This document shows positions 1 to 1,309 of a stretch of DNA of 64,000 nt, piece by piece. The DNA comes from Dehalococcoidia bacterium (lineage in GTDB: Bacteria; Chloroflexota; Dehalococcoidia; Lucifugimonadales; UBA3495), in the NCBI GenBank assembly GCA_965216025.1, contig CBDCEX010000018.1, positions 556,837 to 620,836 of the forward strand, read 5' to 3'. Below the pieces are notes generated by a model, which saw only the letters and a list, made by a program, of their open reading frames with translations, was not told where the DNA came from and ran no database searches. The stretch's first letter is position 1; each line of letters starts with the position of its first letter. Both the position numbers and the translations under genes were made by a program.

Positions 1-312
1 CGTTGCCGGTGCGGTAGTCGGGTCCTCCAGACAGCCCCAGAGACCTCCCGGGGTAAGCCGTGCATCCTTCCCTCGGTCCCCGCCGGATTTACCTGCGCAC
101 CTGTCCGAATAACTATTGGGCCGCCCCGTCCATTGCTGGGTTACCCCACTGCGCCGGCCTTCTATCCGGTTCCTGTTCGTCGAGTCCAAGTTTTGCCATC
201 AGCTTCCTTCAGATTCCACCTCACGATGGACACCCTTGCTTAGGCTAGCGGTTCCGGTCATCACGGCCCGCAGAGGACTTTCACCTCCAAGATGCACAGC
301 ATGCCTGGCACA
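1..312 (-). mobile_element. Group IIC intron A, 5' part only (runs off the window start)
   Basis: Minus strand reads TGTGCCAGGCATG...GGTGAAAGTCC...GCAAGGGTGTCC...GGAATCTGAAGGAAGC...CTTACCCGGGGAGGTCTC, the domain I signature of class IIC introns. It is a diverged copy of about 683-998. Confidence 0.9.
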
Positions 313-998
313 ATCGGGTAGGAGGCGGCCTCGCGGCTCCCGTCCTCCCACACCACCGGACGTACTCAGCGTATCCGGCGGTTTCCTCTACTGTTTCAAC
401 AGGTGCTACCACCCGTCAAGGCTCGTTTCCGTTCAGACACCGTGGTCGCTGGCTGCTCCTCGCTCACCCCAGTTCCGGTTCCGCCTTCACCAGGGACGCC
501 GGGGCGCACGGTCTCCTTCCTCCATTCAAGAAGGGGGAGTTGTTAGGCCGTGCCTTGCTGCCGCTCTACGCCCATCGAGTCCTCTTGACTGGCTCCTTGC
601 AGTAGAGGATTCGGCCCTTCATCCTTCCCGTGCGGGAAGGACTACTATGGCCTCGGCTGACTTCTCCGGAGCCTTCCCCCACCGTTGCCGGTGCGGTAGT
701 CCCGATTCCATCGGGACAGCCCCAGAGATCTCCCAGGGTAAGCTATGCATCCTTCCCTCGGTCCCCGCCGGATTTACCAACGCACATGTCCGGATGACTA
801 CCGGGCCTCCCCGTCCATGGCCGGGTTACCCCACTGCGCCGGCCTTGTATCCGATTCCTGTTCGTCGGGTCCGAGTTTTGCCATCAGCTTCCTTCAGATT
901 CCACCTCACGGTGGACACCCTTGCTTAGGCTAGCGGTTCCGGTCATCACGGCCCGCAGAGGACTTTCACCTCCAAGATGCACAACATGCCTGGCACAC
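313..998 (-). mobile_element. Complete ORF-less group IIC intron B (686 nt)
   Basis: 5' GTGTGCCAGGCATG at 998. Domain V AACCGCCGGATACGCTGAGTACGTCCGGTGGT has the CGC triad, and domain VI ends CCTACCCGAT at 313. Domain IV is closed by the perfect IR TCCTCTACTG (384-393)/CAGTAGAGGA (600-609) and has no RT ORF. Confidence 0.92.
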
Positions 999-1005
999 CA
1001 AGGAG

Positions 1006-1035
1006 AAGGCCCCCGAAGGAATTCGGGGGCCTTTT
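1006..1035 (+). terminator. Intrinsic terminator hairpin; target of the IIC introns
   Basis: AAGGCCCCCGAA-GGAA-TTCGGGGGCCTT followed by TT. The intron 5' end lies about 8 nt from the stem base on the minus strand. Confidence 0.85.
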
Positions 1036-1150
1036 GCTGCTCCGGTTCCTTTCCCAGCCCGCCGCAGAACAAACCCCCATATTTTGTAGCGCCTATAACC
1101 TGCGCGTTAATCCGCGTCGCTCAAGAGCAAGGTCTTCCAGTTCTCCTTAC

Positions 1151-1260
1151 TGTCATTGCGAGCCCTTGGGCTGCGCTCAGGATAAACTCCGCAAAGTAAT
1201 CTCTCCTTAACATCATCACCATCATCAGATTGCTTCGGGCATGCGGCCTTCGCAACGACA
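1151..1260. repeat. Palindromic miniature repeat, TGTCATTGCGAG...CGCAAYGACA family
   Basis: Terminal IR plus inner IR (AAGTAATCT/AGATTGCTT). A related copy lies at 51718-51797. Confidence 0.7.
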
Positions 1261-1309
1261 ATCGAAAACCCCCGTTCAAAAGCCAACCGATTGCGCCGCT
1301 GGAACGGGT

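Follow-up and report, generated by a model that had tools for sequence, protein, structure and literature searches.

The two group II introns at the start of the analysed window probably form a nested pair, in which the ORF-less intron B retrohomed between the first and the second nucleotide of the RT-coding intron A (+1 nesting). The window is a stretch of 64,000 nucleotides of this genome (G000), running from C18:556837 onward, and the introns are read on its minus strand. By their boundaries, their structure and the hairpin upstream of them, A and B are a pair of group IIC introns, and they are a twintron if, as we infer, the spare G at position 999 is the first nucleotide of A. The features of the locus are as follows.

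1006..1033, minus strand: terminator-like hairpin, the IIC target signal, with a 12-bp stem and a 4-nt loop (stem 1033-1022, loop 1021-1018, stem 1017-1006)
1000..1005, minus strand: 5' exon tail CTCCTT
999, minus strand: spare G, now the -1 base of the target of B (CTTG^T), which forms 3/4 pairs with EBS1 of B (CAUG)
313..998, minus strand: intron B, ORF-less group IIC, 686 nt, starting with GTGTGCC at 998 and ending with CCTACCCGAT at 313
814..821, minus strand: EBS1 loop of B, GC-CAUG-GA, a terminal loop in the RF02001 alignment, register checked against the flanks; EBS1 is 819-816 and its first base C reads the exon -1 G
772..777, minus strand: GUAAAU motif of B, which fits T as first 3' exon base (28/30 ends)
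313..383, minus strand: domains V-VI of B with the CGC triad and the CCUACCCGAU end (RF00029, 38.8 bits)
1..312, minus strand: intron A from its second nucleotide, continuing past the window
129..136, minus strand: EBS1 loop of A, GC-AAUG-GA; EBS1 is 134-131 and its first base A reads the exon -1 T

A first-pass annotation had described the locus as hairpin-CTCCTT-G-[GTGTGCC...CCCGAT]-TGTGCC, with A lacking its G at 312 and an extra G at 999, and this description is exact: TGTGCC of intron A directly abuts the 3' end of B and the G1 of A is absent there. The boundaries of B, GUGUGCCAGGCAUGU...CCUACCCGAU, fit the consensus for IIC introns as given in PMC4028801 (GUNYGCCNRGCAUGG at the 5' end, CCUACYCGAU at the 3' end) apart from the last consensus G, and those of A are the same once G999 is counted. 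The Rfam models delineate ribozyme domains I-VI with a short domain V and the CGC triad, as in group IIC: RF02001 aligned at 742-915 and 57-230 (138.6 and 130.8 bits), RF01998 at 614-699 (67.6 and 67.2 bits for the two introns), and RF00029 gave 38.8 and 34.4 bits (E 2.9e-5 and 3.6e-4), both below its gathering score of 40. B is 89% identical to A across the first ~587 nt, and the RT ORF is deleted in B. The EBS1 loops of both introns were placed by the RF02001 alignment; the loops CCGGUA and CCAAUA obtained from minimum-energy folds were replaced on the grounds of the Rfam alignment and the matches to the flanks. By hand count, CCTT, the last four bases of the exon tail, forms 3/4 pairs with AAUG, the EBS1 of A. 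We take the GUAAAU motif of B to hold the EBS3 adenosine, by analogy with the O. iheyensis intron.

The target is not an integron attC site, as in IIC-attC introns, but a GC hairpin that lies near a tRNA-Met gene in congeners, between this gene's 3' end and the region upstream of what is presumably a trpD-like gene. The tRNA-Met gene is antisense to the introns. A short repeat upstream of the trpD-like gene (window 1140-1280) is present many times over in this genome and in relatives, with a very high contig depth.

In the whole genome, we counted 30 intron 5' ends and 30 3' ends; 25 of the 5' ends are free and five directly follow another copy, and 20 ORF-less copies were aligned. Upstream of 21 of the 25 free 5' ends, the adjoining 45 nt fold with -10 kcal/mol or less, and 14 of the 25 pass a strict perfect-stem test, which agrees with the earlier statement that these introns home just downstream of terminator-like hairpins. 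Among lone copies, the distance from hairpin to insertion site is about 3 to 9 nt. An EBS1 beginning with C is preceded by an exon -1 G at 15 free 5' ends, by A at two and by T at one, and an EBS1 beginning with A by T at five and by G at two (p 0.002 for -1 T, with copies that are not independent). This covariation, together with T at +1, indicates the short EBS1-IBS1 and EBS3-IBS3 pairings of group IIC introns. The spread of the copies implies past mobility.

The G at 999 is not diagnostic of nesting because lone B also targets TG^T, and any B site should therefore have one. A G stands in front of most lone B copies, and empty copies of the repeated elements in which some of them reside, reading CATTTTG^TGG in 35 of 35 and TTCTG^TAAAAG in 95 of 103 cases, show that this G belongs to the exon. 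Of the first-pass proposal, +1 nesting is supported, whereas the spare G does not serve as its proof. The B copies inside multicopy IS-like elements (C16:82188, C16:475591, C18:774059 and C15:27200) have weak hairpins; the elements have about 103 and 35 empty copies, and three of the four B copies share one site and may have spread with the element.

More telling is where A inserts when it is alone. The empty sites that both congeners have for C17:477602 match the lone A locus without a gap provided that no G is assigned to the exon, and those for C13:329540 have a pure T tract. These were the two sites informative on both flanks out of six that were queried, the other four being without a usable two-sided ortholog, and on their evidence we rejected the idea that A naturally starts without a G. 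Lone A inserts at TT^T, in accordance with its EBS1 and EBS3, so its G1-T2 makes TG^T, the sequence that B targets. Insertion of B alone yields TGG^T, a mismatch to the EBS1 of B, and B therefore does not re-enter its own copies. Six of the 30 3' ends are followed by TGTGCC and none by GTGTGCC, and all six read CCCGAT joined to TGTGCC. In one of the six, on C14, B is followed by 14 nt matching the start of A; it was left out of the firm count of five junctions because its paralog has a native G and a partly similar sequence. An A-type 5' end lies downstream in all five full junctions, none of the 20 B-type 5' ends follows another intron, and unmixed copies form no full junction of B into B or of A into A in this genome. 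As a rough measure of preference, three of nine A-made sites carry B versus at most eight occupied among ~112 strong-hairpin (C/T)TG^T sites, but these small and non-independent numbers are given no weight.

The first-pass annotation had held that an empty allele ending in CCTTG, combined with A copies that start with TGTGCC, would make the pair a simple tandem, and had pointed to relatives for the empty site. The orthologous empty sites in the congeners G001 and G002 consist of hairpin, T tract and TAG without a G, and lone A starts with a G after a T tract, so nesting survived this challenge. The ortholog comparison is suggestive rather than exact base for base, because the sites belong to other species and have a T tract that is shorter by 2 nt. 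G002:C175:11687 was discarded as a candidate for the same locus, because it is a paralogous site whose IIC intron and 3' flank both differ; this intron (L019 and L043) has a very similar hairpin and lies past a second, degenerate trpD-like gene copy. Among themselves, the stacked A copies show 11-22 differing sites, and two have a nearer neighbour in a lone A (5 and 8 differences), which indicates that the stacks are not one lineage, although gene conversion could blur this signal. Against nesting speak the C14 paralog, whose G at -1 fits an exon G, and an A-type EBS1 with an upstream G in two copies of this genome and in L086 and L044.

The arrangement recurs elsewhere. At least 97 loci in GTDB matched a pattern that links the 3' end of one IIC intron to the 5' end of another. 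Among the 101 junction matches listed, 56 keep the G, 37 are without it, five read TG and three have other letters; the domain V motif was found in 28 of the 37 G-less matches listed, and a few of the others look like chance or contig-end cuts. In a hand tally of the matches listed, a G is present upstream in all ten genomes with G-less junctions but in three of 14 with intact ones (p 1.5e-4). This tally took loci with the 5' end of the upstream intron in view and merged copies of one assembly; L110 was dropped because of its position at a contig edge, and without L073, which may be a sequencing variant of L102, the count is 9/9. The EBS1 of the inner intron begins with C at nine of ten G-less loci versus three of 18 intact-junction rows among the matches listed, and the same EBS1 register matches the flanks in unrelated introns, often at 4/4 positions (L052, L074, L082, L107, L114). 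L104 mirrors the locus described here, with an inner, ORF-less intron of 664 nt (EBS1 CAUG) and an outer intron of 1.9 kb (AACG), and the pairing of C in the inner with A in the outer intron is repeated in L104 and L082. L086, with A in the EBS1 of both introns, is an exception, and L071 represents the -1 register. +1 nesting is one of three registers open to a second IIC intron at an occupied hairpin. Beyond what the first-pass annotation had to go on, nesting is backed by the one-base change in EBS1, by empty orthologs without a G, by lone A copies that start with G and by this association across genomes.

Other head-to-tail arrangements appeared in the same scan. In a MAG of the Solirubrobacteraceae, identical introns of 1955 nt form head-to-tail arrays (L075-L077, L087, L093), in which EBS1 (UCGG) matches CCGA at the intron 3' end with domain VI as the hairpin, a mirror image in that the intron end is targeted. 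L129 consists of two identical introns of 1.9 kb whose EBS1 is CCUG and whose G-less junction follows TTGGG, and +1 self-nesting looks possible where EBS1 begins with CC.

Several of these observations could be read differently. It is conceivable, at rather low odds, that the B-A junction arose once or twice and that the pair then moved as a unit, either by splicing from the 5' end of B to the 3' end of A with the RT of A acting in cis or by recombination, in which case G999 would be an exon base chosen by B. This would fit a target of B that already ends in G, the D6 variant in B that is shared by the window and the C17 stacks, the chimeric nature of C17:37036 and of the middle copy on C13, the native G of the C14 paralog and the alternative 3' splice-site use described for C.te.I1 in PMC4424553. 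However, both empty orthologs lack the G, the stacked A copies are not a clade, and the G-less junctions in GTDB join introns that are just 57-76% alike and hence arose separately; in addition, a first +1 insertion would still be needed to make the junction that then moved.

The register might instead be set mostly by the distance from the hairpin and by a T on the 3' side (EBS3), so that a second IIC intron of any kind would end up behind G1 and the switch in EBS1 would be incidental. The EBS1 of IIC introns is described in PMC4748821 as too short for much specificity, and an A-type EBS1 in front of which a G stands, as in L086, L044 and two copies of this genome, would be expected if EBS1 did not matter. 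The variation of about 3 to 9 nt in the hairpin distance of lone copies was also counted in favour. We nevertheless regard a register set by distance as very improbable: C is the first base of the inner EBS1 at nine of ten G-less loci, often within a 4/4 match, and this genome has no unmixed B-into-B or A-into-A full junction. Hardly credible, and already largely refuted, is a simple tandem with B in the exon ahead of an A that naturally starts with TGTGCC or has lost its G1 by imprecise joining or sequencing error. Single-base errors may exist in such assemblies, and L073 and L102 have near-identical flanks with a different junction G, yet six of six junctions in this genome are without the G, lone A carries its own, and random loss would not place a G upstream in ten of ten genomes among the matches listed.

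Under +1 nesting, the preferred reading, the likely order is A and then B. A would have inserted at hairpin-CCTT^T as specified by its EBS1 (AAUG) and EBS3, whereupon its G1-T2 would have converted the junction to hairpin-CTTG^T, the target of B, whose EBS1 (CAUG) differs by one base. B would need the reverse transcriptase of A in trans, a dependence that is reported as established for other ORF-less bacterial introns (PMC4424553). Exit of B at the RNA level would restore the 5' end of A and give CTCCTTG-TGTGCCAGGCATGC (with the A-type C), and it is reasonable to expect ordered splicing with the inner intron leaving first. Such an order probably has no consequence for the host, because the pair has no coding exons, is intergenic and antisense to a tRNA gene, and the RT of A is broken; no effect of the pair on the host is evident. 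Stacks were later probably expanded, moved or collapsed by homologous recombination between copies that are 89% identical. These steps can be combined into a bolder scenario, which we consider rather improbable as a whole: a change of one EBS1 base would let an ORF-less IIC intron home to each new RT-coding relative, the pair would then splice and move as a composite with the 5' end of B, the 3' end of A and the RT in cis, and intron-on-intron parasitism would recur across bacterial phyla.

Intron A continues beyond the window, as had been anticipated, and ends at C18:553874; uninterrupted copies are ~1907 nt long. No third intron follows A at C18 beyond the window, so that the stack is two deep and the further introns suspected in the first-pass annotation are not there. 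At this locus, an element of 1368 bp that encodes an ISAzo13-family transposase splits the RT ORF of A (intron nt 721), and the remaining RT frame scores 365 bits against TIGR04416 (cut-off 300). Among eight A-type copies examined, none keeps the RT ORF unbroken when read from its first ATG, which makes present mobility doubtful and leaves B without an intact source of RT in trans among these copies. What is left of A in the window and beyond is a broken relic. In three copies, different IS elements struck one and the same TTAG position in the RT ORF of A (intron nt ~721), examples of such copies being C18:556429, C17:268803 and C18:284176, and most uninterrupted A copies are out of frame at intron nt ~721.

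The first-pass annotation had attributed the growth of stacks to repeated homing, which probably does not hold for all stacks in this genome. C17:37036 has a G-less junction and only one G upstream, and a triple on C13 is one G short; the odd copy in each (the middle one on C13) is an A/B chimera with an A-type 5' segment on a B body. Both loci look better explained by recombination than by repeated homing, and the missing G makes recombination a necessary additional step in the nesting model. The ORF-bearing chimeras with two Gs at C17:268077 and C18:368157 could be collapsed stacks. At the site of C17:268077, a congener contig (L015, G001:C19:1-139) has a B 5' end with a near-identical flank, which represents either a shared insertion or bin contamination. 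In this genome, the native tRNA-Met flank of the hairpin is found at C18:285995, ~270 kb away from C18:553873, in opposite orientation and behind an orphan A 3' fragment, which suggests a rearrangement (inversion) between A copies. A single A is likewise split between C17:477602 and C17:521752, with about 42 kb between its two halves.

Contigs of the runs X3, X6 and X7 cover the window from 972 to beyond 1300 without gaps and have both Gs; as they come from three separate studies, the two Gs are not a quirk of the assembly. A short contig of the DNA run X5 over 283-325 crosses the G-less junction without a difference, with 13 letters on the B side, fewer than the bridging threshold of 31 letters. 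No same-species allele that is empty or carries A only occurs among the matches listed for 8 of 24 runs, and the RNA runs X16, X17 and X18 contain neither a one-G form nor a joint skipping 313-998 among the matches listed; in both cases, assembled contigs cannot show absence. Contig depth over B exceeded that of the flank in the RNA run X16 (~1800 vs 6) and in the DNA run X5 (87 vs 5), with all intron copies summed, and is a poor measure of expression. In X16 and X17, contig depth peaks at 749-950, part of domain I of B, with up to ~48,000, possibly due to introns of other organisms or a stable fragment. Several of the runs are labelled as sponge metagenome. A pattern scan of metagenomes returned only three short loci.

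Nested introns have long been known. We came upon no description of IIC introns nested at +1 in the literature searched, but earlier papers may contain one. The locus leads to a testable rule, according to which a newcomer to a hairpin already occupied by a IIC intron lands at -1, 0 or +1 depending on its EBS1 and EBS3, and a landing at +1 disables the resident intron until the newcomer is spliced out. Annotation pipelines that skip multi-intron loci miss twintrons by their own account (PMC4028801, PMC8919778), and since G-less junctions make up 37 of the 101 head-to-tail junction matches listed in GTDB, they miss a common arrangement. If recombination collapsed such a stack, one G too many would remain and could mislead the calling of boundaries.

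Like the terminator introns of group IIC (B.h.I1, O.i.I1, Ta.it.I1), the introns described here have the boundary consensus, match the models for D1-D4 and DV-VI, use a short EBS1 and have a hairpin directly upstream of most copies, and A contains an RT/maturase ORF. In contrast to those introns, two sibling subfamilies that differ in the first EBS1 base coexist in one genome, and the ORF-less sibling outnumbers the ORF-bearing one and lies one base within it. Twintrons have been documented in bacteria and archaea (PMC4424553, PMC2504315, PMC4649490). The nested introns of Methanosarcina acetivorans similarly lie within each other without coding exons, and are described as built by homing and trimmed by homologous recombination (PMC4424553, PMC2504315). 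They home into internal sequence, for example RT active-site codons, by long EBS pairing according to the same papers, whereas the site used here is composed of an external hairpin, exon bases and the first two bases of the outer intron. In the EcKTE56.groEL tandem, a IIB1 system for which PMC12584367 reports tandems shown by experiment, a second copy likewise re-uses an occupied site, and EBS3 decides if the bases of the first intron serve as 3' exon: its EBS3 U wobbles with G1, giving a true tandem with the junction ...GAC followed by GTGCG. In the present introns, the 3' exon base is T at nearly all ends (28/30), and insertion consequently shifts to +1. In the group II twintron of Trichodesmium, as here, the inner intron must exit before the outer one is whole; that twintron lies within a protein gene and its ordered splicing is reported to have been shown in vivo (PMC4649490), whereas the present pair is intergenic and known from its sequence. 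Among known twintrons, the pair represents a recurring variant with a mechanical explanation, and it adds to them a one-base difference in EBS1 between sibling introns of one genome and a test across genomes.
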